The notes: a model not told the origin generated them from the letters alone. A stretch of DNA of 64,000 bases from Eubacterium sp. (GCA_017445905.1 JAFSRX010000013.1:15815-79814), one strand, 5' to 3'; positions 14,770 through 40,188 are shown, counted from the first letter of the stretch. Program-made: numbers and translations.

Positions 14770-14794
14770 AAAAAGCCCCATCGGGGCTTTTTTT
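14768..14794. terminator. Bidirectional intrinsic terminator
   Basis: A7-gcccc-atc-ggggc-T7. Confidence 0.88.
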
Positions 14795-14966: not shown

Positions 14967-14970
14967 GAGT

Positions 14971-24641: not shown

Positions 24642-24895
24642 AGTTTCGCGTTTCGTTGTGTTCACAGCACAGTAATTAAACAAAACTAAATATGCGAGTA
24701 TGGCGGAATTGGCAGCATCGTCGCCGAAGCGCTCGCAGTGCGAGATAAAGCGAGGCGGGAATGGCGCAGCGGTCAAAATTCATCGGCGCACCAAGCCGGA
24801 ATGAATTTTGGGCACCGCAAGAGTCTCGCGTGTCGTTGTGTTCACAGCACAGTAATTAAACAAAACTAAATATGCGAGTATGGCGGAATTGGCAG
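24642..24895 (+). repeat. 74-bp direct repeat (tRNA leader plus first 22 nt of tRNA-Leu) around a 106-bp structured insert
   Basis: 24642-24715 equals 24822-24895 except for 2 mismatches; unique GC-rich insert at 24716-24821. Confidence 0.9.
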
Positions 24896-24958
24896 ACGCG
24901 CTAGATTTAGGATCTAGTATCTCCCGATGTGCAGGTTCAAGTCCTGTTACTCGCACCA
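24874..24958 (+). tRNA. trnL: tRNA-Leu (anticodon UAG)
   Basis: Acceptor stem GCGAGTA/TACTCGC plus ACCA, D-arm GGCGGAATTGGCAGACGC, anticodon arm CTAGA-TTTAGGA-TCTAG, long variable arm, GGTTCAAGTCC T-arm. Confidence 0.97.
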
Positions 24959-26812: not shown

Positions 26813-26831
26813 ATTGATTTCTCCTTTAAAT

Positions 26832-28490
26832 TTACTTAACTTTTATCGTAACTGTTACCGTTACGGTTTTTGACTTATAGGCTGAAGTGCCTGCGGCTTT
26901 AACCTTAACTTTCACTTTATAAGTGCCTTTTTTAAGACCTTTTTTAACGGTGATTTTTCCGGTTTTCTTATCAACGGTTATCTTTTTGTTGCCGCTTGAC
27001 TTGGCATAGGTAACTGTTCCCTTTGCATTTGAAACGGTGATTGCCTCCTTGCGGGTTATGTACTGCGTCTTTTTCTTAAGCTTTGAATACTTAACCGTTG
27101 GCTTCTTCGCTTTTGCAGAAAGGGTGTTGGTATATTTTTCGCATTTCGCAACGGTCTTTGTTTCTTTTTTGCCGCATTCTTCACAGACGAATTCTATCAG
27201 TCCCGTTTCGGTAGGGGTTGGATATTTAGTTATTACTCCTTGACCGAAAATGTGGTCGCAGAGTTCAATCGCATATCCTCCGTCTGTTTCGCTGCTTCCG
27301 CAGAGAACACATTCGTGATACCTGAGAGCGGTTTTTCCGTAAGTCGCACAGGTAGGCTCAATTTCATCATCTATAATATTCCATTCGCCCCAGTTATGCC
27401 CGATGGAAATGAAATTATAGTTGTTTTTTTCGGCATACGCCTCAGCCGTTGAGCCTTTGCAGGCATAAATCGTCGTTAAGGCTGAGAACTTAGCTTCAAT
27501 ATTAACGGAGTACGAATAGACGTTGACTTTAGTTAAATCGACGCAGTCTGCAAAAGCCATATTTTGAATTCTTTTAACGTTTCGCGGGATATCAATGCCC
27601 TTTAATGAAGCGCATTGGCTGAACGCTGCTTCGCCGATTTCCGTTAAGCTTTCCGGGAGAGAAACATAGGTCATATTAACAAGATTATAGAAAATACCGT
27701 CATCAATACATGTTATTCCCTCTTCAACAAATGCCGTCTTAACATCGTCTTTATAACCGTAAAATCCGGGATTGCCAAAGAAATAATTATCGGTAGAGCC
27801 GGTGCCTTTAATTGTTAAAGCCTTGGTTGTATCGTTGAAAACATAGTATGCGTTGTCGCCGCAGTTACCTGCAAAGCTGTATTCATTAAATTTTGCGCCG
27901 TACAGGCAGATATTGGTTTCGGCGATTTCAATATCATCATTGAAACTGTTAACAGAGTCTGCATAATAAATGAACTCTAATTTTTCGCAGTCCGTGAAAG
28001 CGTCATCCTTTATTGAAACGAGGGCGGTCGGCAGAGATATCGCCGATAAGCTTGTACAGCCTCTGAAGGCGCCTTCGCTGATGACTGAAACAGGTCCGCG
28101 GATAAAAGCCGTTTTAAGGCTGCTGCAACCCTTAAACGCCCAGCCGGCAATTGTTGTAACGCTAAAGGGAATATCAACTCTCTCAATGTTTTCACAATCA
28201 TAGAATGCGGAATCGCCTATTTTTGTTATTCCCTCGGAGATAATAACCTTTTTAAGCGTCGTGTTTGCGTCGAAAACGCTGTCGCCTATGGCAACTACAT
28301 TCTTTCCTCCGAGAGTCGCCGGAATTACAAGCTCCTCCGCGTTGCCGTTATAGCCCGTTATCGTTGCCTGACCTGTGGAAACCGAATAGGTAAAGTCCCC
28401 GTCGGTATCGGCAAATGCCGCAATCGGCGCAGCCGAAAAGACGGACATAATCATAATCAAGGACAATAGGATTGATATGGATTTTTTCAT
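26832..28490 (-). CDS. Secreted BspA-type LRR surface protein with a Lys-rich C-terminal module
   Basis: Signal peptide, TpLRR repeats, HECVLC/CEECG motifs, ...KTVTVTVTIKVK tail. Confidence 0.88.
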   Translation of the reverse strand: MKKSISILLSLIMIMSVFSAAPIAAFADTDGDFTYSVSTGQATITGYNGNAEELVIPATLGGKNVVAIGDSVFDANTTLKKVIISEGITKIGDSAFYDCENIERVDIPFSVTTIAGWAFKGCSSLKTAFIRGPVSVISEGAFRGCTSLSAISLPTALVSIKDDAFTDCEKLEFIYYADSVNSFNDDIEIAETNICLYGAKFNEYSFAGNCGDNAYYVFNDTTKALTIKGTGSTDNYFFGNPGFYGYKDDVKTAFVEEGITCIDDGIFYNLVNMTYVSLPESLTEIGEAAFSQCASLKGIDIPRNVKRIQNMAFADCVDLTKVNVYSYSVNIEAKFSALTTIYACKGSTAEAYAEKNNYNFISIGHNWGEWNIIDDEIEPTCATYGKTALRYHECVLCGSSETDGGYAIELCDHIFGQGVITKYPTPTETGLIEFVCEECGKKETKTVAKCEKYTNTLSAKAKKPTVKYSKLKKKTQYITRKEAITVSNAKGTVTYAKSSGNKKITVDKKTGKITVKKGLKKGTYKVKVKVKAAGTSAYKSKTVTVTVTIKVK

Positions 28491-28510
28491 AAAATCATCC
28501 TTTCTTTTTT

Positions 28511-28632
28511 AATTCGGAATGCGGAATGCGAAATGCGGAATTAGCGGATACTCACTTAGTTCGGACAATTAATTATAAGAGGCGTGCGCAACACCATATA
28601 ACTCCGAATTCCGAACTCTGAATTCATAATAA
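28511..28632 (+). repeat. Complete heptamer-armed mini-element (E4)
   Basis: Left arm aattcgg-aatgcgg-aatgcga-aatgcgg-aatt, conserved core, complementary right arm aactccg-aattccg-aactctg-aattcat. Confidence 0.7.
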
Positions 28633-30489
28633 TTATTTTACTTTTATCGTAACGGTGACCGTTACGGTTTTTGACTTATAGGCTGAAGTGCCTGCGGCTT
28701 TAACCTTAACTTTCACTTTATAAGTGCCTTTTTTAAGACCTTTTTTAACGGTGATTTTTCCGGTTTTCTTATCAACGGTTATTTTGCTGTTACCGCTTGA
28801 TTTAGAGTAGGTCACTGTTCCTTTTGCCTTGCTTACCGTTATTGCGTCGGCACGCTTAACCGTTTGATTCTTTTTCTTTACGGCAGAATACTTAACGGTT
28901 TTTGTTTTGCCCTTTGCCGTTAAGGTGTTTGCCTTTTTAGCAAGCTTTGGAACAACCTTCTGTGCCTCGAGAATTTTTCCGCATTCTGAGCAGTGTGTGC
29001 CGGCGGTCAGTCCTGTTTTTGTATAGGTTGCTGCAACCGGTTTGTCAACAACAACCTTGTGTCCCTTTGCCATAATTGTTTTCTGCGCCTGAATAATCTC
29101 TCCGCAGGCGGAGCAATGGCTGCCCTCGGTTTTTCCCGCCTTTGTGCAGGTTGCGGCAACGGCAGAGTCGGTGACAGGTGTGTGTATGACAATTTCCGGT
29201 GAACTCGCAACAATGTATTCATAATAGTCCATATAGTTATATGAGTCCACCGACCACTCGACGCCGTCAACCGTCACATTCGTACTTTCGCTCAAAGCGA
29301 GTGTATCATTTTCATAGTTATATAAGCCGAAATGACAAATCATTTTATAGGTGCCGCAGGTGAAAGTTTCGCCGACAAGGACCTGCTTCCAACTGTCGCC
29401 GTCCTTTTTGTAATAATTTTTCGTGCCGTTCACATTATAATGTACAGGTGTGCCGACAGTTACCGTTACAGTAGGATTCACCGCTTTATTGCCTACGGCA
29501 AGAATGGAAGCAATATCGGAGGTTGCATCCATATGACTGATACGGGGTCTGTTGTCCTCTCTTTTGGATTTACAGATATTGCAGCGATAATCGGTATCGC
29601 TGTCGTAGATATGCGCTGCTTTTGTGCTATCCACCACTGCGCCGCAGTCCTTGTTTTTGCAGATGTTCCAGTGGTATTCGCCGTCCGACATCCACTGAGT
29701 TCCTGCGTTATGGGGGAGCATATCGCCCACTTCAAAGGTTTCCGTGCCTTTTCTGCCGCATTCGCAGGATTTATAGTAAACTGCTTTGCTGTGGCAGGTG
29801 GCGTCGGCTTTCTTATATTTATCTGCTACGACTTCCTGCGTAAACGAATGAGTGTGCCCAACCTGAGGCTCCATCTCATAATCGCAAACTGTGCAGAGGA
29901 TGGGGTATTCCGCTGTTGCGCTGCCCTCATGGTCGGGAGTGTGCGCCGCCGTGTCCTGTATTGCTCCGCAGTCGGGACATTCGTGCCAGTGATTTGTTTC
30001 ATCATAGTGCCACTCGGTAAAATCGTGAACGGTAAATTCGGGCGAGCGGAATACCATATACTCATATCCGCTCATAGGTCTGTACGAACGGTAGGTCCAC
30101 TCTTCGCCGTCCACCGTCAGGGTAGTATTTTCATCAAGATAATAGGTGCTGTTATCGCCGTTGTATAAGCCAAAATAGCAGGTTAATCTATATGTTCCCG
30201 TAGTAAAGGTATCGCCGGACGAGCACGCTTTGAAATTGCCGTTGTCATCCTTTTTATACCAGTTGATATTGCCTGCGGGGTTATAGAGCGCGGGCGCACC
30301 GACGGTTACCGTAATCGTCGGATTAGTTGATGTGTTAATCGGATTGCCGAAGCCGAGGAGGGACTCTATATTCGAGGTTGCAACAATTTCGGGGATATAG
30401 GTTCTCTCCTCACCGAAAGCAATACCCGACGGTATTAAATTAAATACCATAACTATCGCCGTAACCAAGCTGATTAATGCTTTTTTCAT
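28633..30489 (-). CDS. Secreted surface protein: two copies of an unrecognised ~120-aa beta domain, Cys/His repeats and the same Lys-rich C-terminal module
   Basis: Signal peptide; internal repeat ATS.I.S.L..GN...NPT.TVTVG.P..YN...GTY...C.FGLYN...VDG.EW...SPE; C-terminus shared with 26832..28490. Confidence 0.85.
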   Translation of the reverse strand: MKKALISLVTAIVMVFNLIPSGIAFGEERTYIPEIVATSNIESLLGFGNPINTSTNPTITVTVGAPALYNPAGNINWYKKDDNGNFKACSSGDTFTTGTYRLTCYFGLYNGDNSTYYLDENTTLTVDGEEWTYRSYRPMSGYEYMVFRSPEFTVHDFTEWHYDETNHWHECPDCGAIQDTAAHTPDHEGSATAEYPILCTVCDYEMEPQVGHTHSFTQEVVADKYKKADATCHSKAVYYKSCECGRKGTETFEVGDMLPHNAGTQWMSDGEYHWNICKNKDCGAVVDSTKAAHIYDSDTDYRCNICKSKREDNRPRISHMDATSDIASILAVGNKAVNPTVTVTVGTPVHYNVNGTKNYYKKDGDSWKQVLVGETFTCGTYKMICHFGLYNYENDTLALSESTNVTVDGVEWSVDSYNYMDYYEYIVASSPEIVIHTPVTDSAVAATCTKAGKTEGSHCSACGEIIQAQKTIMAKGHKVVVDKPVAATYTKTGLTAGTHCSECGKILEAQKVVPKLAKKANTLTAKGKTKTVKYSAVKKKNQTVKRADAITVSKAKGTVTYSKSSGNSKITVDKKTGKITVKKGLKKGTYKVKVKVKAAGTSAYKSKTVTVTVTIKVK

Positions 30490-30674: not shown

Positions 30675-31307
30675 CTAATCTTTTCTTTTTTTAATTACTA
30701 TTCCGAGACTTCTTGCTTCGCTGACGAGTTCCGTTCGGGTTTTAAAGCCGGTTTTTTCCATTAGGTGCTGAATATGACTCTTGACTGTGGGAAGCGATAT
30801 GTGAAGTCTTTCGGCAATCGCAGTGTTTGTATCTCCCGTGGTAAGCTCTTTGAGAATTTCAAGCTCACGTTCGGTGAAATCGTGGTTTGTTGTGTTGCCG
30901 ATATGAATGAGCGGAGTTTTATCTGGGTATATGTTTTCGCCCGCCATTGTTCTCTCCATAACATCAAGGATGCTATCCTTCTGTCCGTCCTTATACCAAA
31001 AGGAATCAACGCCGATTTTTCTTGCTCTCTCAAGCCACGAATACTCGGGCATCGAGGTAACTATAACAACCTTTATTTCAGGAAATGCTTTTTTGATTTC
31101 TTCTGCGGCGTCAAGCCCGCTGTGACCGAGCTCGGTAAGAACATCCATAAGTATTAAATCAATCTTGTTGTTTGAGCAAATCGACAGAGCTGCCGACGCA
31201 TTGGAAACAGAAAGAAGATGGCTGAACTTTTCACTTGAATTTATATAGATTTCAAAAAGCTGGCGGGGCATATCTTGGTCTTCAACAATAAGAACATTAT
31301 ATGGCAT
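30675..31307 (-). CDS. NarL/LuxR-family response regulator
   Basis: Receiver domain (VEDQ, ILMDV phospho-Asp, VTS, WYK) and LuxR HTH (FTERELEIL..L..G.TN..IA.RLHIS..TVKSH). GGAGG RBS fits ATG 31307. Confidence 0.93.
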   Translation of the reverse strand: MPYNVLIVEDQDMPRQLFEIYINSSEKFSHLLSVSNASAALSICSNNKIDLILMDVLTELGHSGLDAAEEIKKAFPEIKVVIVTSMPEYSWLERARKIGVDSFWYKDGQKDSILDVMERTMAGENIYPDKTPLIHIGNTTNHDFTERELEILKELTTGDTNTAIAERLHISLPTVKSHIQHLMEKTGFKTRTELVSEARSLGIVIKKRKD

Positions 31308-31354
31308 ATTGAACACCTCCAGTTTGATTATACATCAATTCAAAGCAAATGTAT

Positions 31355-31372
31355 ATAAGCCATTCGGATGAT
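31355..31372. promoter_or_regulatory. Candidate operator box B (ATAAGCC-N4-GGATGAT)
   Basis: Same 7-4-7 motif, again 22 nt upstream of a minus-strand TATAAT (31327-31332) that serves the regulator gene. Confidence 0.55.
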
Positions 31373-31385
31373 ATTTCAATAGTTT

Positions 31386-31414
31386 TTGAAATATTTTGTA
31401 TAGTATGGTATAAT
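31386..31414 (+). promoter_or_regulatory. sigma-A promoter of the kinase pair
   Basis: TTGAAA-17 nt-TATAAT with a TG extension. Confidence 0.65.
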
Positions 31415-31444
31415 AAATTTAATTTGTTGCAGAGGAGGGAAAGT

Positions 31445-33097
31445 ATGAACGAAGTAAAAACGACATTCAGGCGGATGGCGCTTTATTATCTGTTGCTTGC
31501 CGTTAATATTATTCCCTGCGGACAACTTATTCCCGATGTTTTTCCAATGCGCAATCTTTCGGTAATCTATCTTCTGACGCTTTGCGTTTGTCATATTTTA
31601 TATTATTCTCACCGCGTTACTCCTATGGGCGGACTTTCCTTTATGATGAAGGCGCTTTCGGCGATGAGCCTTCTTCTGATTCTTTTTAGAGGAATTAAAT
31701 ACAGTGTTTTTGCCGAGATAGGCGTTATTGACCGCCATATATGGTATCTATATTATGTTCCTATGATTTTAATGCCTTTATTTCTTTTTTACATTTCGCT
31801 TTATGTTGCGCCGAAAAAGGATTTCAAAATAAAGAAATGGCTCTGGACTGCTGTGATTTCAGCAGGATTCATTATTCTGATTTTAACGAATGATTTGCAC
31901 CAGCTTGTTTTCAGTTTTCAGCCTGATTTTGAGCGCTGGGACAGCGAATATTCCTATGGGATATTGTTTTATATTATAACTGTTTGGAGATATATTCTCT
32001 ATCTTTCGGCAATTACCATTCTTGTTATGAAATGCCGTATAACATCTTCAAAGAAAAACGCCTGGATAATAATGATTCCTTTTGTTATCGGAGCTGTTAT
32101 GAATACTCTTCTGGTAACAGAAAAAATGCCGAAAATCAACGGCACATATATCATTGAATTTCCGGAGGCGCTTATTTTCACCGCTGCGGTCGTTCTTGAA
32201 TGCTGCATCGGACTCGGTCTTATTCCGACTAATACGGATTACGGAAAGCTGTTTCAGAAGTTTTCTATTGCAGCACAGATTACGGATAAAAACGGAGATA
32301 CCGTTTATTCCTCACTTTGGGCAAGTCCTTTAAGCAAGGAGCAATTTCAGTCTGAAAGCGGAAGCCGAATAAGCGAGCATACGGTTTTGAATAAAATGGA
32401 GATTCCCGGCGGTTTCGGTTTCTGGCAGGACGATATGACCGAGCTTGACCGCCTTAACGATGAGCTTGCCCGTGCTAAAGAGGAACTTTTACAGGAAAAC
32501 GAGCTTATTCGACTCAGAAATAAACTGAAAGAGAAGCAAACGAAAACCGAGCAGCGCTCAGTTGTTTATGATATGATAGCAAAGCGAACGCAAAAGCAAT
32601 CGCAGTTGATTTCCGAGTATGCAAAAACCGCTCGCACCACGGAAGATTTAAGCATTAAGGAAGAATCTCGAAAGAGAATATTACTGCTCGGCGCATATAT
32701 TAAGCGCTATGCAAATCTTATGCTGCTGTCTCAGGAGGACGGATATATTGAAACGGGCGAATTTGCGCTGTCTGTTTCGGAGGTTCTGAGATATCTCAAT
32801 TATTGCGGTATTCCAAGTGAATTTATAAGCAATGCCCAGGGAATAATCAGCGCAGATACTGCACTGAAAACCTTTGAAATATTTGAAACTCTGCTTGAGA
32901 GTAATCTTTCCGTGCTGAAAGGAACCTTTGTTAATCTTTCAACGGAAGAATTAAAAATAACGCTTGAAAACCTCAATGATACCATTTCAAACAGTACGAT
33001 AAATGAACTCAAAAGCTATGGCGTTCAAACGCGGATAAACAGCGAAGATGGTGTTACATACATCTGTTTTACTCTAGGGAAAGGGGGCGAAGCATAA
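31445..33097 (+). CDS. Multi-TM sensor protein, histidine-kinase-like (HisKA_7TM-type N-terminus), probably a pseudokinase
   Basis: About 8 TM helices including ILTNDLHQLVF; coiled coil; YDMI where an H-box His would be expected; no clear N/G boxes. GGAGG RBS fits ATG 31445. Confidence 0.75.
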   Translation: MNEVKTTFRRMALYYLLLAVNIIPCGQLIPDVFPMRNLSVIYLLTLCVCHILYYSHRVTPMGGLSFMMKALSAMSLLLILFRGIKYSVFAEIGVIDRHIWYLYYVPMILMPLFLFYISLYVAPKKDFKIKKWLWTAVISAGFIILILTNDLHQLVFSFQPDFERWDSEYSYGILFYIITVWRYILYLSAITILVMKCRITSSKKNAWIIMIPFVIGAVMNTLLVTEKMPKINGTYIIEFPEALIFTAAVVLECCIGLGLIPTNTDYGKLFQKFSIAAQITDKNGDTVYSSLWASPLSKEQFQSESGSRISEHTVLNKMEIPGGFGFWQDDMTELDRLNDELARAKEELLQENELIRLRNKLKEKQTKTEQRSVVYDMIAKRTQKQSQLISEYAKTARTTEDLSIKEESRKRILLLGAYIKRYANLMLLSQEDGYIETGEFALSVSEVLRYLNYCGIPSEFISNAQGIISADTALKTFEIFETLLESNLSVLKGTFVNLSTEELKITLENLNDTISNSTINELKSYGVQTRINSEDGVTYICFTLGKGGEA

Positions 33098-34332
33098 TGG
33101 TATCCTTTAGTATGCTCCCTGCTTTACTGCGCAGTTTGTTTGCGCTCTGGACATTGCTCCTCTGCCTGATAAATATCGGAAGCGGTGTTCTGGCGGCGGT
33201 AAAAAAGCACCTTGCTTATACTGCTTTCGCAATTTTGCTCTTTGTGCCGTCATACTTTATGTGGCAGGTTATTTTTGACTATTCGCTGATTGAAAAAATG
33301 AAGCATATATCCGAAATTACGCAGCGCATTGTTTTATTTCCCACAGCTTACTTGTTAATAGCTTTTGTTGCTTTAACAATCGCAAGCGCAGTGCTGTTTT
33401 TGCGAAATATTAAATTTGACAGAACCTTTATTACTCCCGGCACTATTAAACTTTATCTTGATAAAGTTCCTTGCGGTATTTGCTGCTGGCGCGAAAACGG
33501 AAGGATTCTGTTTTCAAATGTCTGTATAAATGAGCTTTGTATGGAAGTCTCTTCAACCCCTCTCCTCAACGGCAATCATTTTAATGAGACAGTGAAAGAC
33601 GGAATACTGAAAATCGGCGATAAAGTATGGCGTTTTGTTTGTAACGAAATTGAGCTTGACGGCGAAAAGCTTCGGGAAATGATAGCTTCTGATATCACCG
33701 ATGAAAATGCCAAAACCGAGGCGCTCAAAAACGATAACGCCCGTATTTCACAGCTCAACAGAGAATTGCAGGATTATTATATAAGTATAGACGAATCAGT
33801 TAAAAGAACAGAAATTCTGCAAGCGAAAATGAATATCCACGATGAAATGAACCGCCTTATGCTCTTAACTGTTTCCTGCGATAAGGAGGACGTTAAGAAA
33901 CTTGATAAGGTCTTTTCACTTTGGGAACAAAATTCACTTCTGCTCTGTATGGAAGCGGATAAAAAAGCTTCAAATCAGAAATCGGAGAGTCTTAACGCTC
34001 TTGCAAAATCCCTCGGAATAAATCTTAAGTGGGATATGATGATTCCAAAAACGCTTACGGATGAACAAAAGGAACTCTTTTTCTTTACCTCTCAGGAAGC
34101 GTTGATTAACGCCGTTAAACACGCTGCCGCCAAGGAAATGACAATTTCTGCAGAGTCGGGTGAGGGTGAAGTTGTTTTCAGATTCACGAATAACGGAAAA
34201 ATACCAACGAGTGAGATACACTATGAAGGCGGACTAGCAAATATTGAATATCTTGCAGGAAAACAGGGCGCAACCGTTAGTGTTGAACTCAGCGAAGCAT
34301 TCACTCTTGTCTTGCAGATTAAACTCTCATAA
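33097..34332 (+). CDS. NarX/DesK-type sensor histidine kinase
   Basis: H-box NIHDEMNR, N-box QEALINAVKHA, FTNNG (G1-like), GGLANI (G2-like); 1-bp TAATG overlap with the upstream gene. Confidence 0.8.
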   Translation: MVSFSMLPALLRSLFALWTLLLCLINIGSGVLAAVKKHLAYTAFAILLFVPSYFMWQVIFDYSLIEKMKHISEITQRIVLFPTAYLLIAFVALTIASAVLFLRNIKFDRTFITPGTIKLYLDKVPCGICCWRENGRILFSNVCINELCMEVSSTPLLNGNHFNETVKDGILKIGDKVWRFVCNEIELDGEKLREMIASDITDENAKTEALKNDNARISQLNRELQDYYISIDESVKRTEILQAKMNIHDEMNRLMLLTVSCDKEDVKKLDKVFSLWEQNSLLLCMEADKKASNQKSESLNALAKSLGINLKWDMMIPKTLTDEQKELFFFTSQEALINAVKHAAAKEMTISAESGEGEVVFRFTNNGKIPTSEIHYEGGLANIEYLAGKQGATVSVELSEAFTLVLQIKLS

Positions 34333-34340: not shown

Positions 34341-34391
34341 AAAAAAAGCATAGCTCCCTTAGAAAAATGTCCTAAGGAGCTATGCTTTTTT
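34341..34391. terminator. Bidirectional terminator
   Basis: aaaaaagcatagctcc...ggagctatgctttttt stem between convergent genes. Confidence 0.85.
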
Positions 34392-34397: not shown

Positions 34398-35105
34398 TTA
34401 TTTGAAATCCTTTTCGCAGAGCGCTTCAACCTCTTCACAAACTGCTTTAAGGCTGCAGGTTTGGCAGTCCATTTTTATATCCTTCATTATATGGTCGAGT
34501 GCCGTTGTTATGTTTTCCGATTTTTGCATTATTGTTTCAAGCTCATCATAAGGAAAATCCTTTGCAGTCACAAAGAGAAGCTTAACCGCTTCAACCTGGG
34601 GCTGTTTTTTATATTCTTCAATAAAGAGTTTTCCAATATCAGAAAAGCTGATTCCATTTTTTATGGCTTTTTTGCTTACTCTTGCGGCTTCCCTGTGGGT
34701 AAATGCGGAAATTCTCATCATATATCCCTCGGGATTGATATGATAGCGGGCATATTCGATTTTTCTTATAGTCTGATATAGCTTTTCGCCAGTTCCCATT
34801 TCATTTTCATTAACACGAATAAGCGCAATTCTTGCGAAAGGTGAATTTGCTTTTATATCGCATAAATCATCACCGATAAGAAGAATTTCGTCACAGGGAA
34901 CATATTCCTCCTTGTCAGTAAATGCAACGCTGCTTACTGCAGGAAGTGTTCCTGAACCGAGTTCATATGCAGTATCGTTTAGAAAAACTATCTGGTTTTT
35001 ATCAGAACTCTTCCATTTGGAAGGGCTGTTTGCTTCAAATTTCTTAACGCAGTGGCTTTTTAAGATTTTGCCAACTCCGTCAAAACATTCATTATATAGT
35101 TTCAT
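34398..35105 (-). CDS. Stand-alone acetyl-CoA synthase (CdhC/AcsB) middle-domain homolog with a C-terminal CxxCx5Cx6C motif
   Basis: AYELG, ILLIGDDL...PFA, INPEGYMMR...RVSKKAIKNGISFSDIG resemble the ACS middle domain; only 235 aa. Confidence 0.7.
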   Translation of the reverse strand: MKLYNECFDGVGKILKSHCVKKFEANSPSKWKSSDKNQIVFLNDTAYELGSGTLPAVSSVAFTDKEEYVPCDEILLIGDDLCDIKANSPFARIALIRVNENEMGTGEKLYQTIRKIEYARYHINPEGYMMRISAFTHREAARVSKKAIKNGISFSDIGKLFIEEYKKQPQVEAVKLLFVTAKDFPYDELETIMQKSENITTALDHIMKDIKMDCQTCSLKAVCEEVEALCEKDFK

Positions 35106-35106
35106 A

Positions 35107-35874
35107 TTATAATACTTTCAGTTTTTTCAGTGCCTCTTTTGTACCGAGAACAACGGGGGACTCCTCAGAGAGCTTATAAACGCTTTCACCCCTCATATCA
35201 TTAAGCGCCATTTCTCTGTCATCGCTAATGCAGGAAAGCAGTTCAAGTCTTCCTGTATCAAGGCTATCCTTAAGTTGTATATCGGGCATTCTGTTGATTA
35301 TAACTCCTGTTTTATCAAACATAACGAGTTCTTTTGCAACCTTGTGAATTGTCTGAATAACCTGCAAGCCTTTTTTGCTGGCGTCTGAAACAAGAACTAA
35401 ATGAGTAACCTTTTCCATAACTCTTCGGTTAACCTGTTCAATTCCTGCTTCACCGTCGATAACAACAAAATCGAAATTATCGGAAATCATGGAAATGATT
35501 TCTTTTAGATATGCATTAACCTTGCAATAGCATCCTGCGCTTTCAGGACGTCCGATTGCAAGAAAAGAAATATTTCCTTTTTCAACAAGCGCATCAAACA
35601 TCTGATATTTCGCTTCACCTAATAGCTCAATAGCGGCGTTTTTGTTTCCTCCTTCAACAGTCTGAACAAATGATTTTCTGATATCATCAACAGTTGAAGT
35701 TATTTCAATTCCGAGCGCAGTTGAAAGACCGACAGCGGGGTCAGCGTCAATAGCAAGTATTCTTTTATCAGGATACGCCTGTGAGAGAAGGCGAACGGTT
35801 ATTGCCGAAAGTGAGGTTTTGCCGACTCCGCCTTTGCCTACAAGGGCGATAATAGTTGTATTAGTTTCTTCCAT
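35107..35874 (-). CDS. cooC: CooC-family nickel-insertion ATPase
   Basis: Deviant Walker A GKGGVGKT, IDADP, GCYC Ni-binding motif, IDGEAGIEQ. Confidence 0.88.
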   Translation of the reverse strand: MEETNTTIIALVGKGGVGKTSLSAITVRLLSQAYPDKRILAIDADPAVGLSTALGIEITSTVDDIRKSFVQTVEGGNKNAAIELLGEAKYQMFDALVEKGNISFLAIGRPESAGCYCKVNAYLKEIISMISDNFDFVVIDGEAGIEQVNRRVMEKVTHLVLVSDASKKGLQVIQTIHKVAKELVMFDKTGVIINRMPDIQLKDSLDTGRLELLSCISDDREMALNDMRGESVYKLSEESPVVLGTKEALKKLKVL

Positions 35875-35876
35875 TT

Positions 35877-36065
35877 TTATTCCGTTTTTAATATAACATA
35901 TCCGTCTGTCAGGCTTGCTTTTAAAAGTGAGCCTTCAACAGTACAGCGCCTGCCCATTAAATCAATTAATATAACCTGATTTTCGGAGCATTCAACTTCC
36001 ATAACATTATTCATTATAGCTGTATCTTCGGATATTTCGTTTTTATATGCAGTTGATAAACACAT
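35877..36065 (-). CDS. cooT: CooT-family nickel-binding protein
   Basis: 62 aa, MCL start (Cys2), 'L.D.MG....V.G.L....L' pattern. Confidence 0.82.
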   Translation of the reverse strand: MCLSTAYKNEISEDTAIMNNVMEVECSENQVILIDLMGRRCTVEGSLLKASLTDGYVILKTE

Positions 36066-36067
36066 AA

Positions 36068-36232
36068 TTATAACTTCTTATCTTTCTTGAGATTATCGTA
36101 GTAAGGCTGCAGCTTATCATATATTTTTCTGACAAGCTTCATATCACTGTTTGTATAGTATATTGAAAAGGTTATAACAAAAAATGCAAACAAAACTGCA
36201 AGGATTATTAAAACAGCTTTTAAAAATTTCAT
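36068..36232 (-). CDS. 54-aa single-TM protein of unknown function
   Basis: ATG 36232 directly after the activase stop; MKFLKAVLIILAVLFAFFVITFSIYY hydrophobic stretch followed by a basic tail. Confidence 0.7.
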   Translation of the reverse strand: MKFLKAVLIILAVLFAFFVITFSIYYTNSDMKLVRKIYDKLQPYYDNLKKDKKL

Positions 36233-36233
36233 T

Positions 36234-37028
36234 TTATTTTGCCATTCCTTTCTGTCTTGCATATTCAGCAGCACCGAGCGCACCCATTAACTGAGGGTCG
36301 GTTTTAAGCTCAACAACTTTAATTTTGAGAACCTTTTCAATAGCCTGTTTTAAACCGTCGTTTTTAGCGCATCCGCCTGTTAAGGTTATGCTGTCTGTTG
36401 CGCCCGCTTTTTTTGCCATAACAAAACATCTCTTTGCAACAGCGAGTTGAATTCCTGCGGCAATTTCATCCATCGGTTTTCCTTCACCGACAAGGGAAAT
36501 AACCTCGCTCTCAGCGAAAACAGTACACTGAGCCGTAATTGGAATTGTGTTCTTTGCCTGAAGAGAAAGTTTTGAGAATTCAGGTAAAGTCATTTCAAAC
36601 GCATTCGCCATTGCTTCATAAAAACGCCCTGTTCCTGCAGCGCATTTATCATTCATAGCAAAATTCTTAACAGTTCCGTCGGTATCAATAGCAATGCCCT
36701 TTACGTCCTGACCGCCGATATCGATAATTGCTTTAACATTGGGGTTTGTAACGTGAACTCCCATTGCATGGCAGGAAATTTCGCTTATGTTTTCGTCTGC
36801 AAAGGGAACCTTGTTTCTTCCGTATCCTGTTCCAACAAGATATGTTAAATCCTTTGCTGAATCTAATCCTTCAACCTGTGATACAGCATCATTTAGCGCT
36901 ATTTCAGCCGACTGAACGGGATTAATTTTACTTCTGTTTGTAACATCGGCAACCATTTTGCCGTCTTCATCAAGTATAACGCATTTTGTGTAGGTTGAGC
37001 CTACATCACATCCGCCAAAATATTTCAT
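36234..37028 (-). CDS. ATP-dependent dehydratase/reductase activase (HgdC/archerase, ASKHA fold)
   Basis: GCDVGSTYTK, TGYGR, SEISCH, IDIGGQDVK, MNDKCAAGTGRF, ITAQCTVFAESEVI (two cluster Cys). Confidence 0.93.
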   Translation of the reverse strand: MKYFGGCDVGSTYTKCVILDEDGKMVADVTNRSKINPVQSAEIALNDAVSQVEGLDSAKDLTYLVGTGYGRNKVPFADENISEISCHAMGVHVTNPNVKAIIDIGGQDVKGIAIDTDGTVKNFAMNDKCAAGTGRFYEAMANAFEMTLPEFSKLSLQAKNTIPITAQCTVFAESEVISLVGEGKPMDEIAAGIQLAVAKRCFVMAKKAGATDSITLTGGCAKNDGLKQAIEKVLKIKVVELKTDPQLMGALGAAEYARQKGMAK

Positions 37029-37041
37029 ATTATTTATCTCC

Positions 37042-38613
37042 TTACCATGCTAAAGTATCGTCAAAATCAACTAATGTCGGGTCAACGGGTTCTTCCTGAA
37101 GAACGGTTGTCATATATTTGTTTATATGCTCGCGCATATCTCTTCTTGAAATAGTGCGCGGGTCCATAAGGTCCTGAGGCACCCAGATAAAGCTGACATT
37201 ATGTTCTCTTGCCTGATCGTCGAAAATTCCGTTTAATCCGTCCATTCCTTTGCAGGAAATCTGGTCATACATAATAACCATATCGGCGTTGAATTCTTCA
37301 ACTATTCTCCAAAGCTCGTCAACAACATTTGCATAACCGCCCTTAGTGTGCTTACGCATTGTTGTTCTCTGAAGTGTTTTAGCAAGTGTTGATAGCGCTT
37401 TTTCTTTATCGTCTGTGTCGTACATATAATAGGAAATCATAGTTTCCATATCCATAACAACATTAACGCCCCAACAGTTTTCAAGCCAGTTTGCAAGACT
37501 GGTATAATAGTTGGCAGGGCAGGACCAGACGATAGCTCTGTGGCGCATTTCTTTTGAACATTTTGTTTTCTTTTCATATGCGTCAAGCATAAGCTTATTG
37601 ACCTTTTTATCGGTCTTTAAGAATCGCTTATCCATACCTCCTGAAATGTGGAAATAAAACAGTCTGTAAAGCCAGAAGGTTGCGCCCGTCATCTGAGGAT
37701 AATCGGTTTTGTTAACTTCCCATTTCTGAATTTCATATTCGGTTTGCTGATTATACTGCTTCATCGCTTTGAAGAAGTGATCCCAGTCCCATTTTTCGCC
37801 TGTTTGTTCTTCAACGAATTTAATAGCGGATTTAATCTCGTCAACCGCGTATTCCTGAACATCCTCGCCGTTATAACGAAGAGGAACATTAATAACCTGA
37901 GTCGGAATATTGAATCTTCTGTCTATGTATGAGGAATTGATAACCGAGCCGTCGCAGGGCATATTACAAGTCAGCGCGCATTTTCCAACAAGCGGATAAT
38001 CATCGTTAATTGCAACGCCTGCCTCAGCGGAGGGAAGGGGGCATACATCGGCGGGAACACCATAGCTCTCTGTTATATCAAGATAGGGGGGAGTTATGTT
38101 CTGGTCAACCATTGATGTTAAGAAAATCGGAATAGTTGTAACATGGTTATCCCTTAAATTAGGAAAGCCTGCAATAAACTCCGACGAAAAAATTTCATCA
38201 ACATTAACAGTTCTGTCAGCCCATTTTGAATTCTCATGAAAATGTCTGTCGTTAGCTAAAAGGAAATTGATTAAATCCGTTGTTGGTTTAACAAGCATAT
38301 TCATATGAAGATGTGTTATTCTGAGTTGAGGACCTCTGAGACCTTCGGTATGTCGGTCAACCCATGCGGGTGCTGATAGATAACTCGCCATCCAACGATA
38401 ATTTGCAAGACCCTTAACTGTTGAAACAGGAGCCTTGCCAGCCATAACAATAATATCTTTCCATGTTATAAGCCAGCGGTAGTAATCGTACATTGTGTCC
38501 GAAATTCCGCGCCACTCTCTGTGTTTGAGCAGTCCTGTTTTATCCTCGTGCAAATCTCCGAGGTTGCTCGGCTCGTTGCGCCAAAGGTTTTTAAGTTTTG
38601 ATTTTAAACTCAT
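37042..38613 (-). CDS. 2-hydroxyacyl-CoA dehydratase / benzoyl-CoA reductase-like subunit (HgdA/BcrB-type) with an N-terminal extension
   Basis: ADVCP, CNMPCDG and ISCKG cluster motifs; FDAD-like (FNADMVI) segment. Confidence 0.8.
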   Translation of the reverse strand: MSLKSKLKNLWRNEPSNLGDLHEDKTGLLKHREWRGISDTMYDYYRWLITWKDIIVMAGKAPVSTVKGLANYRWMASYLSAPAWVDRHTEGLRGPQLRITHLHMNMLVKPTTDLINFLLANDRHFHENSKWADRTVNVDEIFSSEFIAGFPNLRDNHVTTIPIFLTSMVDQNITPPYLDITESYGVPADVCPLPSAEAGVAINDDYPLVGKCALTCNMPCDGSVINSSYIDRRFNIPTQVINVPLRYNGEDVQEYAVDEIKSAIKFVEEQTGEKWDWDHFFKAMKQYNQQTEYEIQKWEVNKTDYPQMTGATFWLYRLFYFHISGGMDKRFLKTDKKVNKLMLDAYEKKTKCSKEMRHRAIVWSCPANYYTSLANWLENCWGVNVVMDMETMISYYMYDTDDKEKALSTLAKTLQRTTMRKHTKGGYANVVDELWRIVEEFNADMVIMYDQISCKGMDGLNGIFDDQAREHNVSFIWVPQDLMDPRTISRRDMREHINKYMTTVLQEEPVDPTLVDFDDTLAW

Positions 38614-39809
38614 TTTGCCTGCTCCTTTTCTTTTTGGATTTTCTTTATTTCAAGGCTTTCAACGAATGCCTGAACTCTTGTTCGTAACTGACCCGAGGCG
38701 TTTGCAGTATATTGACGGTCAACGCATACTGACGGAATACCGAAATCATTTGTTACAATATGTGAAGCGAGCGCTCTCTCATATCCCCAGTATTCACAGA
38801 ATTTGAGCTGCTCATATAAAACGCCGTCAGCATGATAATCTTCAACGAGTTTCTTAACAAAGTCACGTCTGCCCTGAACCTTGTCCTGCGACATATATCT
38901 CGGGCACTGACAGGTTTTCATATAGTGAACAATAATTTGCTCTAAAACATCACCGTCATCTGTGAGATGTATTTCCTCTCTTCCGGGAAGTGAGCCGAAG
39001 CAGAAACGGTCTGCAACAACAAGCGCTCCCGAATCCTCGATTAGCTTGGTAAAATCGGGGTCATCCATTTCTGAGCCAACAACAACAATCTTTGCTCTGT
39101 AGTTCTTCTTCTCATCGGGAACTCTTGTTTTGAGTTCCTCAGCTGTTTCTCTCAGCTTATCGATGATAAGATATTTCGGACAGCAGTAGGTTATTAGATT
39201 GAGAACATGAAATTCATATCCCGTTATTCTCGGATTTTCTTCTTTTCTGTATTCACCGATTTCTGTAATCAGTCGGCAAATCTCATTATGCTCTTCAACC
39301 GCTTTTCTTAATGCGTCATCGCTGATATCAATTCCGTAAACTTCTTTGAGTTTATCGAGAATCTTTTCCTGCATCTGGCTTTTATAGTGCTTGATAGTGT
39401 GGGGCATAATCTTGAACGGAACATCAGAAATAGTAACAAAAAACTTTTCGTTATCAACTAAATTAAGAAGTTCAAAATGCTCATAAGCTCTGTTCATCTG
39501 GGAACAGGTTTCTGTTCCGAAAAGAGCGTTAAGATGCTGATAACCGCCCTCAATGCCTCTTTCAACCAGTGCCTTTGAAAATCCGCACAAAAACGAGCTC
39601 ATATAATATGTAGAAATATCAAGAGAGCCCGTTCTCGGTGCACGAAGTCTTGTTGAAAAGCATCCGGGAAGATTAAGCAGAACTTCCGGAACATGATAAC
39701 ATGTGTAGGCAAGGCATAACTTGCCGTCTTTTTTTGCCTGCTGAACAAGCTCATTATTCGCTTCCTGCAGCAGATTTTCAAATTCATAAAGATACTTTAA
39801 ATCCTTCAT
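38610..39809 (-). CDS. 2-hydroxyacyl-CoA dehydratase-family subunit, Cys-rich (BcrC/DCCP-like)
   Basis: YTCYHVPE, FLCG, ETCSQM, RFCFG, CQCPR, LKFCEYW, GQLRTRVQAFVE. Confidence 0.85.
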   Translation of the reverse strand: MKDLKYLYEFENLLQEANNELVQQAKKDGKLCLAYTCYHVPEVLLNLPGCFSTRLRAPRTGSLDISTYYMSSFLCGFSKALVERGIEGGYQHLNALFGTETCSQMNRAYEHFELLNLVDNEKFFVTISDVPFKIMPHTIKHYKSQMQEKILDKLKEVYGIDISDDALRKAVEEHNEICRLITEIGEYRKEENPRITGYEFHVLNLITYCCPKYLIIDKLRETAEELKTRVPDEKKNYRAKIVVVGSEMDDPDFTKLIEDSGALVVADRFCFGSLPGREEIHLTDDGDVLEQIIVHYMKTCQCPRYMSQDKVQGRRDFVKKLVEDYHADGVLYEQLKFCEYWGYERALASHIVTNDFGIPSVCVDRQYTANASGQLRTRVQAFVESLEIKKIQKEKEQAK

Positions 39810-39822
39810 TTATGTTACCTCT

Positions 39823-40050
39823 TTAAAGTGTTTCAAGCACTTCTTTGAGCAGTGCATTTCCTTTGTTGTACACATTGATTGCTTCCAGCGTTTTTTCAGC
39901 CGAAGTATTCTTCCCGTCTTTTTTTAACCTTTCAGCAATCTGACATAGTTCATCGGTATGTGAAATATTATGTTTAACCATATATTCAACCAATACCTTT
40001 AATTCTTCTTCACTTTCAGCATTAACTGTGTGATGATGGTGTTCGTGCAT
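39823..40050 (-). CDS. Small His-rich helical protein, putative metal chaperone
   Basis: MHEHHHH N-terminus plus YMVKHNISHTDEL; first gene of the operon. Confidence 0.7.
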   Translation of the reverse strand: MHEHHHHTVNAESEEELKVLVEYMVKHNISHTDELCQIAERLKKDGKNTSAEKTLEAINVYNKGNALLKEVLETL

Positions 40051-40188
40051 AAATATCTGCAACCTTTCATTATATTATTACAATAGTAACATTTCTAACA
40101 AATTAAATCAACAAAAATATAAATTTTTCAGTAATAGATGACAATGAAAAATTAATGTGTTATTATTAATCAAACGGGGGGTGATTTA

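Follow-up and report, generated by a model that had tools for sequence, protein, structure and literature searches.

The closest described relatives of the reductase pair reported here are ATP-driven iron-sulfur enzymes. In the class I benzoyl-CoA reductase (BCR) BzdNO, the [8Fe-9S] cluster of BzdN is bound by Cys36/73/100/263/293/327 and the catalytic [4Fe-4S] cluster of BzdO by Cys95/128/380 (PMC11971306). From a different family, the IsrA-HypA-HypB operon of Acetobacterium wieringae encodes a putative isoprene reductase (PMC10134865). A combination of nickel chaperones, an ATP-driven reductase and an acetyl-CoA synthase (ACS) fragment is not described in the literature that we searched in full text. 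We present a locus with this combination, which lies in a 64,000-nucleotide stretch of DNA (hereafter, the window).

The locus forms a compact predicted operon with recognisable boundaries. Our ORF reading of the window places eight co-oriented genes on the minus strand at 34398-40050 (Table 1), and the coordinates give spacings of 13, -4, 13, 1, 2, 2 and 1 bp between successive ORFs. These coordinates agree exactly with those of the first-pass annotation, which had described eight co-oriented genes with gaps of -4 to 13 bp and a single terminator; its gene-by-gene domain calls also hold in the Pfam, NCBIfam, PDB and Foldseek matches. The source of the window is an uncultured ruminant-gut Clostridia bacterium.

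Table 1. Features of the operon, with positions counted from the first letter of the window.
Feature	Position	Strand	Description
HisR (His-rich protein)	39823-40050	minus	75 aa from ATG, MHEHHHH...
BzdN/HgdB-like HGD-D subunit	38610-39809	minus	399 aa
BzdO/HadB-like HGD-D subunit (HgdA-like)	37042-38613	minus	523 aa
HgdC-type activase ("archerase")	36234-37028	minus	264 aa
TM54 membrane protein	36068-36232	minus	54 aa
CooT, nickel chaperone	35877-36065	minus	62 aa
CooC-type MinD-family ATPase	35107-35874	minus	255 aa
ACSf, acetyl-CoA synthase fragment	34398-35105	minus	235 aa
Promoter TTGATT-17 nt-TGnTACTAT (extended -10)	40083-40111	minus	~30 nt 5' of HisR gene
Intrinsic terminator	34341-34390	.	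15-bp stem with one bulge, 9-nt loop, seven T

An alignment of upstream regions shows that the promoter hexamers and their spacing are kept across at least 12 related loci, and a generic promoter scan returned weaker matches that overlap this conserved promoter. A riboswitch scan of the region 5' of the cluster was negative for the window and for 11 loci, and visual inspection of the aligned sequences revealed no candidate operator. At the other end, the strong terminator hairpin starts 8 nt past the ACSf stop codon. An A run flanks the hairpin, which can thus double as terminator for the convergent gene ending at 34332.

The two reductase subunits carry the cysteine sets of BzdN and BzdO, respectively. 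The 399-aa subunit matches PF06050 (HGD-D) at 1.7e-94 (317.6 bits; cut-off, 28.4). Its top NCBIfam model is double_cubane (144 bits, under the cut-off of 350), and its closest PDB chain is BzdN (8s02_B; 4e-28), followed by DCCP (6eno). Residues C37, C75, C102, C270, C302 and C338, which are invariant or nearly so among 49 sequences, align with BzdN Cys36/73/100/263/293/327. They also fit the DCCP motif (PMC7317905), save its non-ligand Cys. All six cysteine ligands of an [8Fe-9S] double cubane are thus retained in this subunit, which predicts a cluster site of that type. This retention is a newly recognised feature, and it refines the earlier label of “HgdB/BcrC-like”: the protein is indeed a PF06050 subunit, more precisely a BzdN-like one with a six-Cys double-cubane motif.

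The 523-aa subunit also belongs to PF06050 (9e-44; 150.9 bits; cut-off, 28.4), and it begins with a conserved helical N-terminal extension of ~170 aa. Its AlphaFold model (pLDDT 85) has HadB (3o3m_A), BzdO (8s02_A/C), MbdO and DCCP as top Foldseek matches, with E ~1e-13. The invariant C191, C220 and C454 align with BzdO Cys95/128/380, and this three-Cys set predicts a catalytic [4Fe-4S] site of the BzdO/HadB type. Also invariant are C212, C216, C380 and H358, which are without counterpart in BzdO or HadB.

The activase is extremely conserved across 50 loci. It matches PF01869 (7.6e-58) and TIGR00241 (217.9 bits; cut-off, 125.4), and C129 and C168 are invariant. This score, above the cut-off, and the two cysteines per monomer identify it as a predicted HgdC-type activase. 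We take C129 and C168 to be the equivalents of HgdC Cys127 and Cys166, the ligands of the bridging [4Fe-4S] cluster.

The last gene of the operon encodes a fragment of ACS. ACSf matches PF03598 weakly (25.1 bits; cut-off, 24) and aligns with positions 309-470 of 705 in NF040764; against ACS equivalog models it scores 20-27 bits, with cut-offs of 356-809. By profile, its residues 39-182 correspond to residues 332-471 of Moorella ACS. The AlphaFold (AF2) model has a pLDDT of 84, and all of its top 21 Foldseek matches are ACS (E ~1e-9). Towards the C terminus lies the motif C214-x2-C217-x5-C223, the three cysteines of which are invariant among 61 sequences, while a fourth (C230) is kept in only 21%. 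We compared this tail, which is modelled at low confidence (pLDDT <50 for residues 210-219), with Cys506/509/518/528 of ACS, presumably the A-cluster ligands. From the end of the A2 alignment to the CxxC, the distance is 32 residues in ACSf and 35 in ACS. ACSf ends 12 residues past its third Cys, and a complete A3 domain (a four-Cys [4Fe-4S] loop plus a Cys-Gly-Cys Ni site) is not present. The profile and the model together show ACSf to be an ACS middle (A2) domain, followed by a predicted opening segment (CxxC...C) of the A-cluster loop, which is newly recognised. The previous designation as an ACS middle-domain protein is therefore borne out by Foldseek and profile, and can be extended to include three cysteines from the beginning of that loop.

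A six-gene module recurs across genomes. It comprises the genes for CooC, the BzdN-like subunit (HgdB), the BzdO/HadB-like subunit (HgdA), the activase, TM54 and ACSf. We sampled 58 ACSf loci from GTDB species genomes, 32 of which have full flanks, and the whole module is found in about 30 of these 32. Counted gene by gene with correction for ORF-selection artefacts, the activase and CooC are each present in 31, HgdA and TM54 each in 30, and HgdB in ~29-30. Reciprocal sampling from the HgdA-like protein recovered full modules in four of six contexts; the other two are bare HgdB-HgdA pairs that have no accessory gene within 8 kb. The hosts are dozens of gut anaerobes, spread over several Clostridia families, Erysipelotrichaceae, Spirochaetes and Muribaculum. 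The genes are arranged in at least four ways: the order of the window, CooC-HgdB-HgdA-Act-TM-ACSf, CooC-Act-TM-ACSf-HgdB-HgdA, and split loci. The linkage of coo-type and hgd-type genes in other genomes, which the first-pass annotation had put forward as a check, is thus upheld in several gene orders and phyla.

Neither CO dehydrogenase (CODH) nor another ACS was found with the module. All ORFs of at least 550 aa in the window carry unrelated domains, and a search with the ACS middle-domain profile matches ACSf only, which agrees with the earlier observation that the window has no CooS or full-length ACS. Apart from ACSf, no ACS occurs in any of the 58 loci, and no CODH is present among the ten Cys-rich neighbours scanned. 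Together with the conserved linkage and the lack of a description in the literature searched, this supports an undescribed conserved system. The names in current databases (“carbon monoxide dehydrogenase” for ACSf at NCBI; “CO dehydrogenase maturation factor” for homologues of the ATPase at JGI) would rather suggest that CooC, CooT and ACSf serve a canonical CODH/ACS elsewhere, or are relics of one, and that their proximity to a dehydratase operon is a coincidence. We consider this very improbable. The coo-hgd linkage persists down to 32% ACSf identity, and coincidental neighbours are largely refuted by such conserved synteny. Nor does ACSf resemble a relic: it belongs to a large, uniform family under strong constraint (674 representatives at the 50% clustering level), and among the best-scoring 150 of these the complete proteins are stand-alone, at ~235 aa.

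The module consists of two separable cassettes, HgdB-HgdA and CooC-activase-TM54-ACSf. Stand-alone HisR-CooT-CooC-ACSf cassettes are seen at L024, L029, L033 and L034, and the activase is added at L028. Nickel chaperones therefore travel with ACSf rather than with the reductase pair, a further feature newly recognised here. The ACSf and HgdA trees are discordant, and thus a physical partnership of the two proteins is putative. In 15 of the 58 loci the module is directly adjoined by genes for HypA, HypB, TetR and a putative Ni oxidoreductase of the IsrA-like kind; this set lies on either side and in either orientation.

This neighbourhood invites an alternative in which the ATP-driven proteins act as a reductive activator or maturase. 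Low-potential reductive activation is required by the ACS A-cluster, and analogous devices are RACo, for a corrinoid protein, and the MCR activation complex. By analogy, the activase and HgdB-HgdA could use ATP to reduce or assemble a Ni centre, whether that of ACSf or that of a different enzyme (the IsrA-like protein, for example), with no turnover of a metabolite. In split and permuted loci the activase does group with CooC, TM54 and ACSf, and not with HgdB-HgdA, as might be expected of an activator. However, the IsrA-like genes come with their own HypA and HypB, and the window and 43 of the 58 loci have no such gene near the module. Furthermore, the catalytic-type subunit retains the active-site Cys triad of BzdO/HadB, and its 170-aa extension, which is very conserved and includes numerous polar and aromatic positions that never vary, exceeds the needs of an electron wire. 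We therefore regard an activator as unlikely. The corrinoid enzyme that had been suggested as a possible client finds no support, as the surroundings of the module show no recurrent corrinoid gene.

The nickel-type accessory proteins carry the sequence hallmarks of their families. The closest PDB match of the CooC-like ATPase is CooC1 (3kje; 7e-13), with the C-Y-C motif aligned, and both its GKGGVGKT P-loop and C115-x-C117 (CYC) are invariant among 50 homologues. A deviant Walker A motif (GKGGxGK[ST]), CxC and nearest similarity to CooC assign it as a predicted CooC. The genomic association of CooC with cooS or acsB is not seen: the window has neither gene, the 58 loci have no ACS other than ACSf, and none of the ten Cys-rich neighbours scanned is a CODH. 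No CooC-specific NCBIfam model matches the protein, the best being MinD and ParA models, all under cut-off. CooT matches PF10133 over its full length (positions 1-60 of 60; 9.3e-16; 58.3 bits; cut-off, 27), and the N-terminal Met-Cys2 is kept in 19 of 19 homologues. Cys2 of CooT has a role in Ni binding, and with the full-length Pfam match it predicts that the 62-aa protein is a CooT.

HisR is helical and has, besides its histidine-rich N terminus, an invariant H27-N28-x2-H31 and G64-N65. Its homologues always head the cluster or lie directly 5' of CooT-CooC. No significant relatives were detected by profile search of Pfam, NCBIfam and PDB sequences, among which a solved CooJ would be included. 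We classify HisR as a putative accessory protein that binds nickel. Of the 58 loci, 18 have CooT and 14 have HisR, and both proteins are confined to the lineage of the window; with the two absent from ~70% of loci, most modules have CooC alone. TM54 has a single hydrophobic stretch, presumably transmembrane, and an invariant N-x-D-M-K and D46 tail. Homologues directly follow the activase gene in at least 46 of the 58 loci, and none of the Pfam or NCBIfam families matches TM54 above threshold.

The narrow distribution of CooT and HisR and the MinD/ParA affinities of the ATPase could also point to a module that uses no nickel. The pair would then be a double-cubane reductase or dehydratase of an ordinary, though new, type. 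The CooC-like ATPase would serve as a general assembly factor for Fe-S clusters, double cubanes or other metals, and ACSf would be a [4Fe-4S] electron-transfer or CoA-binding subunit. The characterised relatives BCR, HAD and DCCP are all without Ni (PMC7317905, PMC11971306). Bare HgdB-HgdA pairs (L005-L008) adjoin genes for Mrp/ParA and a NifX-like Fe-S carrier, not nickel genes, and the tail of ACSf offers only three conserved cysteines and no Cys-Gly-Cys Ni site. Yet DCCP and BzdNO are produced with their clusters without any CooC (PMC7317905, PMC11971306), and the closest solved relative of the ATPase is a nickel insertase, with the metal-binding CxC invariant. In the lineage of the window, CooT, with its Cys2, and a His-rich protein are added next to CooC. 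ACSf, moreover, appears to descend from a nickel enzyme and to retain the cluster loop that bridges to Ni. A nickel-free module is thus, in our judgement, doubtful.

We propose that the operon encodes one functional system, an undescribed variant of the BCR/HAD/DCCP-type ATP-driven Fe-S enzymes with an acquired nickel-handling branch (probability, roughly 55%). The six genes recur together in a combination not found in the literature searched, and may therefore represent an unrecognised nickel-dependent enzyme; we infer its nickel dependence from chaperone homology only. Of the Ni/Fe-S system initially postulated, the conserved and undescribed nature is supported by synteny and by the literature searched, and the corrinoid variant is dropped.

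In such a system, reduced ferredoxin or flavodoxin would donate an electron to the [4Fe-4S] cluster of the activase dimer, and ATP hydrolysis would drive it onto the BzdN-like subunit, at its [8Fe-9S] cluster. By analogy with class I benzoyl-CoA reductase, it would then pass on to the catalytic subunit and its three-Cys [4Fe-4S] site. Nickel would be loaded into ACSf by CooC, itself supplied by CooT and HisR. The CxxCx5C tail of ACSf would be the counterpart of the A-cluster [4Fe-4S] loop in ACS, with the Ni-bridging Cys, and would thus give ACSf a Ni-[4Fe-4S] centre of minimal size. The ATP-driven pair would cooperate with this centre or maintain it in the reduced state, and the 54-aa anchor would site both at the membrane. 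Given the large, closed-looking N-terminal extension and the relationship to ACS, the best substrate candidates are a small molecule or a CoA thioester.

A more specific version, which we offer tentatively, is a new class of Ni enzyme. Here a minimal, split, A-cluster-like Ni-[4Fe-4S] centre on the stand-alone ACSf, matured by its own CooC (and by CooT and HisR in some lineages) and anchored to the membrane, would be wired to an ATP-driven double-cubane electron pump like that of benzoyl-CoA reductase. The reaction would be a reduction at very low potential, or a C-C or C-S conversion of a CoA thioester or another small molecule, to which no system in gut and rumen anaerobes has so far been assigned.

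Among known systems, class I BCR (BzdNO/MbdON; PDB 8S02, 9G87; PMC11971306) likewise pairs two PF06050 subunits in a heterodimer, which is powered by an ASKHA-fold ATPase that holds a bridging [4Fe-4S] cluster. The six [8Fe-9S] cysteines of its N-type subunit lie within a few residues of those in the BzdN-like subunit, and the three [4Fe-4S] cysteines of its O-type subunit (95/128/380) have counterparts in C191/220/454. Identity is low, however, and scores against the BCR equivalogs (bzdN, 105 bits with a cut-off of 454; bzdO, 23 with 449; bzdQ, 168 with 380) fall far under cut-off. With these scores and a single activase gene in place of two ATPase subunits, membership in class I BCR (BzdNOPQ/BcrABCD) was rejected. 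The catalytic subunit further differs in its 170-aa N-terminal extension and extra invariant Cys/His, the operon has no aromatic-degradation genes nearby, and BCR lacks the CooC, TM54 and ACSf that accompany the module.

DCCP/DCCP-R (PDB 6ENO, 7YYL; PMC7317905) resembles the operon in its six ligand cysteines, conserved in the BzdN-like subunit, and in its pairing with a homodimer-type activase from one gene; for both subunits, the double_cubane model scores highest in NCBIfam. DCCP itself is homodimeric and its motif has seven cysteines, whereas the pair described here consists of two different subunits, of which only one has the full six-Cys motif and neither the seventh Cys. The DCCP equivalog (NF040772) was rejected on these grounds and on scores of 144 and 52 bits against a cut-off of 350. 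DCCP is also without nickel- or ACS-related partners. HAD enzymes (HadBC-HadI, HgdAB-HgdC) share the plan of two PF06050 subunits plus one activase, and in structure the catalytic subunit matches HadB best. Their beta subunit, by contrast, has a [4Fe-5S] remnant where the BzdN-like subunit has its six-Cys double-cubane motif, the HAD equivalog models give very low scores (30 and 88 bits; cut-offs, 700-750), and no CoA-transferase or 2-hydroxyacid dehydrogenase genes lie near the operon.

The nickel branch compares best with the CODH/ACS maturation set (CooC-CooT-CooJ, AcsF), from which the operon differs in having no CooS and no complete ACS. The presumed client ACSf is homologous to ACS; it consists of the middle domain and three cysteines, without A1, most of A3 or the Cys-Gly-Cys Ni site. 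HisR, a small His-rich helical protein, is encoded where CooJ would be expected; to CooJ it has no relationship detectable by profile search of PDB sequences and Pfam. Shared with this set are a CooC-type ATPase with P-loop and CxC, and a CooT with Cys2. The IsrA operon encodes a member of an unrelated family, a flavin/Fe-S GltD-like oxidoreductase that is not ATP-driven, is absent from the window and is accompanied by HypA and HypB instead of CooC. Like IsrA, the system described here is a candidate Ni-dependent reductase of anaerobes, recognised through its linkage to nickel chaperones.

The eight genes very probably constitute one functional system. ORF reading bore out in every particular the gene set, order, orientation, spacing and single terminator claimed in the first-pass annotation, with intergenic gaps of 13, -4, 13, 1, 2, 2 and 1 bp in operon order. 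A conserved promoter lies upstream of the gene for HisR, the His-rich protein, and this gene is therefore the head of the unit. Unrelated genes flank the operon on both sides: a convergent set with a 7TM histidine kinase and a LuxR response regulator on one, and an alpha/beta hydrolase, a GNAT protein, an RNA methyltransferase and an aminotransferase on the other. Rfam searches of the window and 11 loci at gathering thresholds turned up no riboswitch and no known regulatory RNA; the matches were limited to tRNAs and a single unrelated sRNA. Homologues of the operon genes are expressed in one metatranscriptome run, the only one with related sequence, on short contigs, mostly <90% identical, from related strains.

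Features of the window and of sampled loci in other genomes (L numbers)
Feature	Location	Strand	Remarks
HisR, His-rich, 75 aa	39823-40050	minus	start at the ATG common to homologues
HgdB, PF06050 protein, 399 aa	38610-39809	minus	ORF
HgdA, PF06050 protein, 523 aa	37042-38613	minus	ORF
BcrAD/BadFG activase, 264 aa	36234-37028	minus	ORF
TM54, 54 aa	36068-36232	minus	ORF; single hydrophobic stretch, presumably transmembrane
CooT	35877-36065	minus	ORF
CooC-like ATPase, 255 aa	35107-35874	minus	ORF
ACSf, acetyl-CoA synthase fragment, 235 aa	34398-35105	minus	ORF; weak CdhC match
Terminator	34341-34390		15-bp hairpin then seven T; 8 nt past last operon stop codon
Promoter, TTGATT-17-TGnTACTAT	40111-40083		upstream of HisR; conserved in alignment with a dozen related loci
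Two-component set	30675-34332		LuxR-type regulator minus; two membrane proteins plus
Surface-type proteins	25001-30489		three large, in a row
tRNA gene	24874-24955
Bare HgdB-HgdA pairs	L001-L004:6802-9575; L005-L008:6804-9545
Stand-alone chaperone/ACSf cassettes	L024:5594-7814; L029:288-2248; L033:3610-5600; L034:8779-10690; L028:7854-10714
IsrA-like genes, among others	L040:2166-5003; L043:10701-13805; L047:10946-13864; L053:2386-5097 and 12958-15645; L054:10650-13325; L050:648-2204
Clostridiales-1 sRNA (RF01699, 139 bits)	L047:10743-10909		Dorea ammoniilytica; between ACSf and IsrA-like gene
Opp/Nik-type ABC transporter	L054:572-4342		single occurrence
Flavodoxin	L055:4201-4707		single occurrence
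Glycyl-radical enzyme and its activase	L075:1306-4864		single occurrence
Rnf complex genes	L010:1-3309		single occurrence

The convergent end of the two-component set lies 66 bp from the operon, and the terminator is common to both. One of its membrane proteins has a 7TM histidine-kinase N-terminal domain, and the other is without a Pfam match; the set was not found beside the module in other loci. Among the surface-type proteins, two combine leucine-rich repeats of the BspA type with fn3 or cadherin domains, and the third (618 aa) is Cys-rich, with internal repeats and a cadherin-like C terminus.

The linkage of coo-type and hgd-type genes, claimed from the window, holds in other genomes. An ACSf profile scan of one genome per GTDB species yielded 58 loci, with a lowest ACSf identity of 32%, and all their ORFs were searched with the eight window proteins. 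In the 32 loci whose flanks were full (6 kb or more upstream, 4 kb or more downstream), we found the activase in 31, CooC in 31, HgdA in 30, HgdB in about 29-30 and TM54 in 30, this last count including four loci where ORF selection had masked the gene and the matches are visible. Sampling from HgdA homologues gave the complete module (CooC, HgdB, HgdA, activase, TM54 and ACSf) in 4/6 contexts and a bare HgdB-HgdA pair in 2/6. CooT (18/58 loci) and HisR (14/58) are restricted to the window's own lineage. The commonest gene order is (HisR-CooT-)CooC-HgdB-HgdA-activase-TM54-ACSf; others are the window type, CooC-activase-TM54-ACSf-HgdB-HgdA, and split loci.

Among Clostridia of the rumen and gut the module is frequent. 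Clostridial hosts of ACSf loci include Oscillospiraceae, Lachnospiraceae (Roseburia, Dorea, Agathobacter, Lachnospira), Eubacteriaceae, Emergencia and Clostridium gasigenes; Erysipelotrichaceae, Spirochaetes, Treponema and Muribaculum are also represented. Cultured carriers are C. gasigenes DSM 12272, Emergencia timonensis SN18, Dorea ammoniilytica and Senimuribacter sp.

These genes are very unlikely to be chance neighbours. On that rival reading, the hgd-type genes would lie by coincidence beside genes of a canonical CODH/ACS system. As the first-pass annotation had claimed, the window holds neither CooS nor full-length ACS: its ORFs of at least 550 aa all have unrelated domains, and the ACS middle-domain profile matches the 235-aa ACSf alone. 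The same profile detected no full-length ACS in any of the 58 loci, and no CODH was found among the ten Cys-rich large neighbour ORFs scanned. Given that the linkage is conserved from both sampling sides and in several gene orders, with no full-length ACS in the sampled loci and no CODH among the neighbours scanned, we consider coincidence highly improbable.

Judged by sequence, HgdB and HgdA are members of the superfamily of benzoyl-CoA reductases, 2-hydroxyacyl-CoA dehydratases and double-cubane cluster proteins (DCCPs), but not of any described enzyme: the pair reached no cut-off of the curated equivalog models for these three groups. Their activase, the most conserved of the eight proteins, exceeds the curated TIGR00241 cut-off (218 bits vs 125). 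The closest PDB relatives of HgdB are BzdN of class I benzoyl-CoA reductase (8s02_B, 4e-28) and a DCCP (6eno, 2e-20). Its six invariant cysteines (C37, C75, C102, C270, C302 and C338) match the [8Fe-9S] ligands of BzdN, Cys36/73/100/263/293/327 (PMC11971306), and the ligand cysteines of the DCCP motif, whose seventh, non-ligand Cys is missing (PMC7317905). The predicted HgdA model is confident (pLDDT 85), and its structural matches are the catalytic subunits HadB, BzdO and MbdO, plus DCCP. HgdA C191, C220 and C454 align with BzdO Cys95/128/380, which ligate the catalytic [4Fe-4S]-OH2 cluster (PMC11971306).

HgdA also has a helical, highly conserved N-terminal extension of ~170 residues with many invariant Arg, Trp and Tyr. 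The further invariant residues C212, C216, C380 and H358 have no counterpart in BzdO and HadB. We considered C212/C216/C380 as a rebuilt half double cubane or a Ni site and do not rely on it: C380 is off the BzdN C263/HgdB C270 position in a profile-profile alignment, and the secondary-structure positions are unconvincing. TM54 has homologues in at least 46 loci, always 3' of the activase gene; its N-x-D-M-K motif is invariant, and its basic C-terminal tail is conserved. No family match was found for it, and we know of no role for a TM54-like protein in any benzoyl-CoA reductase, 2-hydroxyacyl-CoA dehydratase or DCCP system.

Analogy with known maturation proteins suggests that nickel is probably part of the eight-gene system. 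CooC1 is the closest relative of the CooC-like ATPase among solved structures, and their C-x-C metal motifs align; neither this motif nor the P-loop varies among homologues. CooT aligns with the whole of its Pfam model and keeps Cys2 in 19/19 homologues. HisR has no detectable relatives beyond its own small family in Pfam, NCBIfam or PDB, and no similarity to CooJ was detected.

ACSf looks like an A2 domain plus the start of the A-cluster [4Fe-4S] loop, with the Ni-bridging Cys of ACS. Its predicted model (pLDDT 84) has acetyl-CoA synthases as all of its top 21 structural matches, and residues 39-182 align with Moorella ACS 332-471, the middle domain, taking in the conserved E-x-G-G and R-V-S-K motifs. 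One helix past the aligned region lies C214-x2-C217-x5-C223, which does not vary among 61 sequences, whereas only 21% keep a fourth Cys. The CxxC is 32 residues past the last residue aligned to ACS; in ACS, what we take to be Cys506-x2-Cys509 lies 35 residues past the equivalent point. The Cys-Gly-Cys nickel site of ACS is absent. The family has 674 representatives at the 50% clustering level, and complete proteins among the best 150 of these are stand-alone and uniformly ~235 aa.

The module is built of two distinguishable cassettes, HgdB-HgdA and a chaperone/ACSf set. HgdB-HgdA occurs alone in L001-L008, and no activase, CooC or ACSf lies within 8 kb of these pairs. Conversely, four loci (L024, L029, L033 and L034) have HisR-CooT-CooC-ACSf on its own, and L028 has it together with the activase. 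No HgdB-HgdA was found in the 10 kb to either side in L028 and L034, or in the available sequence of L024, L029 and L033, each truncated at one end or both. These stand-alone cassettes may be the missing halves of genomes with bare pairs. The activase-TM54-ACSf order is kept in nearly every locus with all three genes; in L063 another ORF lies between activase and TM54, and in the window type CooT-CooC is inserted ahead of ACSf. Similarity to the window is discordant between the cassettes: HgdA is 71% identical in L066, L068 and L070 and ACSf only 32-36%, while in L040 the values are 40% and 52%. Thus, the cassettes recombine. Because the nickel-type chaperones travel with ACSf, the best available pointer to their client is ACSf, not the reductase pair.

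The bare pairs are 57-58% identical to window HgdA. In L005-L008 they lie downstream of a Mrp/ParA-type ATPase (PF10609) and a NifX/NafY-like PF02579 protein, both Fe-S or cofactor carrier types.

Flanking genes gave no clue to a substrate: they vary by locus, and none recurs except an IsrA-like set. The IsrA-like gene, which is not in the window, directly adjoins the module in 15/58 loci, on either side and in either orientation. It encodes a Cys-rich oxidoreductase of ~900-970 aa (PF07992, PF14691, two ferredoxin motifs) and is flanked by genes for HypA, HypB and a TetR regulator. Architecture and neighbourhood are those described for clade 9 of IsrA, a putative isoprene reductase (PMC10134865). 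Thus, two candidate nickel systems recur side by side; HypA and HypB were not counted as an independent sign of nickel in the module because they belong to the IsrA-like set. The single-occurrence neighbours may point to supply lines. It is improbable that the module is an ATP-driven reductive activator or maturase acting on ACSf or on another enzyme such as the IsrA-like oxidoreductase.

We favor one system in which an ATP-driven Fe-S pair is coupled to a nickel-bearing ACSf branch, at a probability of roughly 0.55 by analogy with characterized systems. The activase has motifs for a bridging [4Fe-4S] cluster, HgdB for an [8Fe-9S] cluster and HgdA for a three-Cys [4Fe-4S] cluster; a CooC-type metal ATPase and an ACS-derived three-Cys protein accompany them. 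By analogy with BzdNO(PQ), 2-hydroxyacyl-CoA dehydratases and DCCPs, ferredoxin or flavodoxin would reduce the activase, and ATP hydrolysis would push the electron via the double cubane to the catalytic cluster. As in CODH/ACS maturation, CooC, aided in the window by CooT and HisR, would load Ni into ACSf. The result would be a minimal Ni-[4Fe-4S] centre on ACSf that leaves one coordination position open and may be completed at an interface with a partner. This centre would work alongside the ATP-driven pair at the membrane, or the pair would keep it reduced. We regard a nickel-free double-cubane enzyme, with CooC in another assembly role, as unlikely, if the strongest of the rivals.

If Ni is confirmed in an ACSf centre coupled to the ATP-driven pair, the module would amount to a new nickel enzyme class. 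To our knowledge, only a handful of nickel enzyme types have been recognized, and the ATP-driven enzymes of the three related groups are so far purely iron-sulfur systems; a conserved module that joins both would extend the list by a new nickel-dependent catalyst. At minimum, it would be a new CooC/CooT client outside CO metabolism. It bears on the natural use of double-cubane clusters, and would place in context the orphan fragments that hundreds of gut genomes carry under the annotation "carbon monoxide dehydrogenase". The cultured carriers make the nickel hypothesis directly approachable by experiment.

A full-text literature search found no description of these chaperones combined with an ATP-driven reductase, one apparent match being the word "cooccurrence", and dehydratase or activase partners go unmentioned in a recent study of CODH genomic contexts. 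The module also falls below the curated thresholds of every described enzyme in related families. Four known systems come closest. Class I benzoyl-CoA reductase (BzdNO/MbdON) shares the module's cluster motifs and the logic of its subunits, and DCCP with DCCP-R likewise combines a double cubane with a one-gene activase. The 2-hydroxyacyl-CoA dehydratases have an operon logic in common with the module and provide, in HadB, the top structural match of HgdA, while the accessory branch resembles the CooC-CooT-CooJ/AcsF nickel maturation set.
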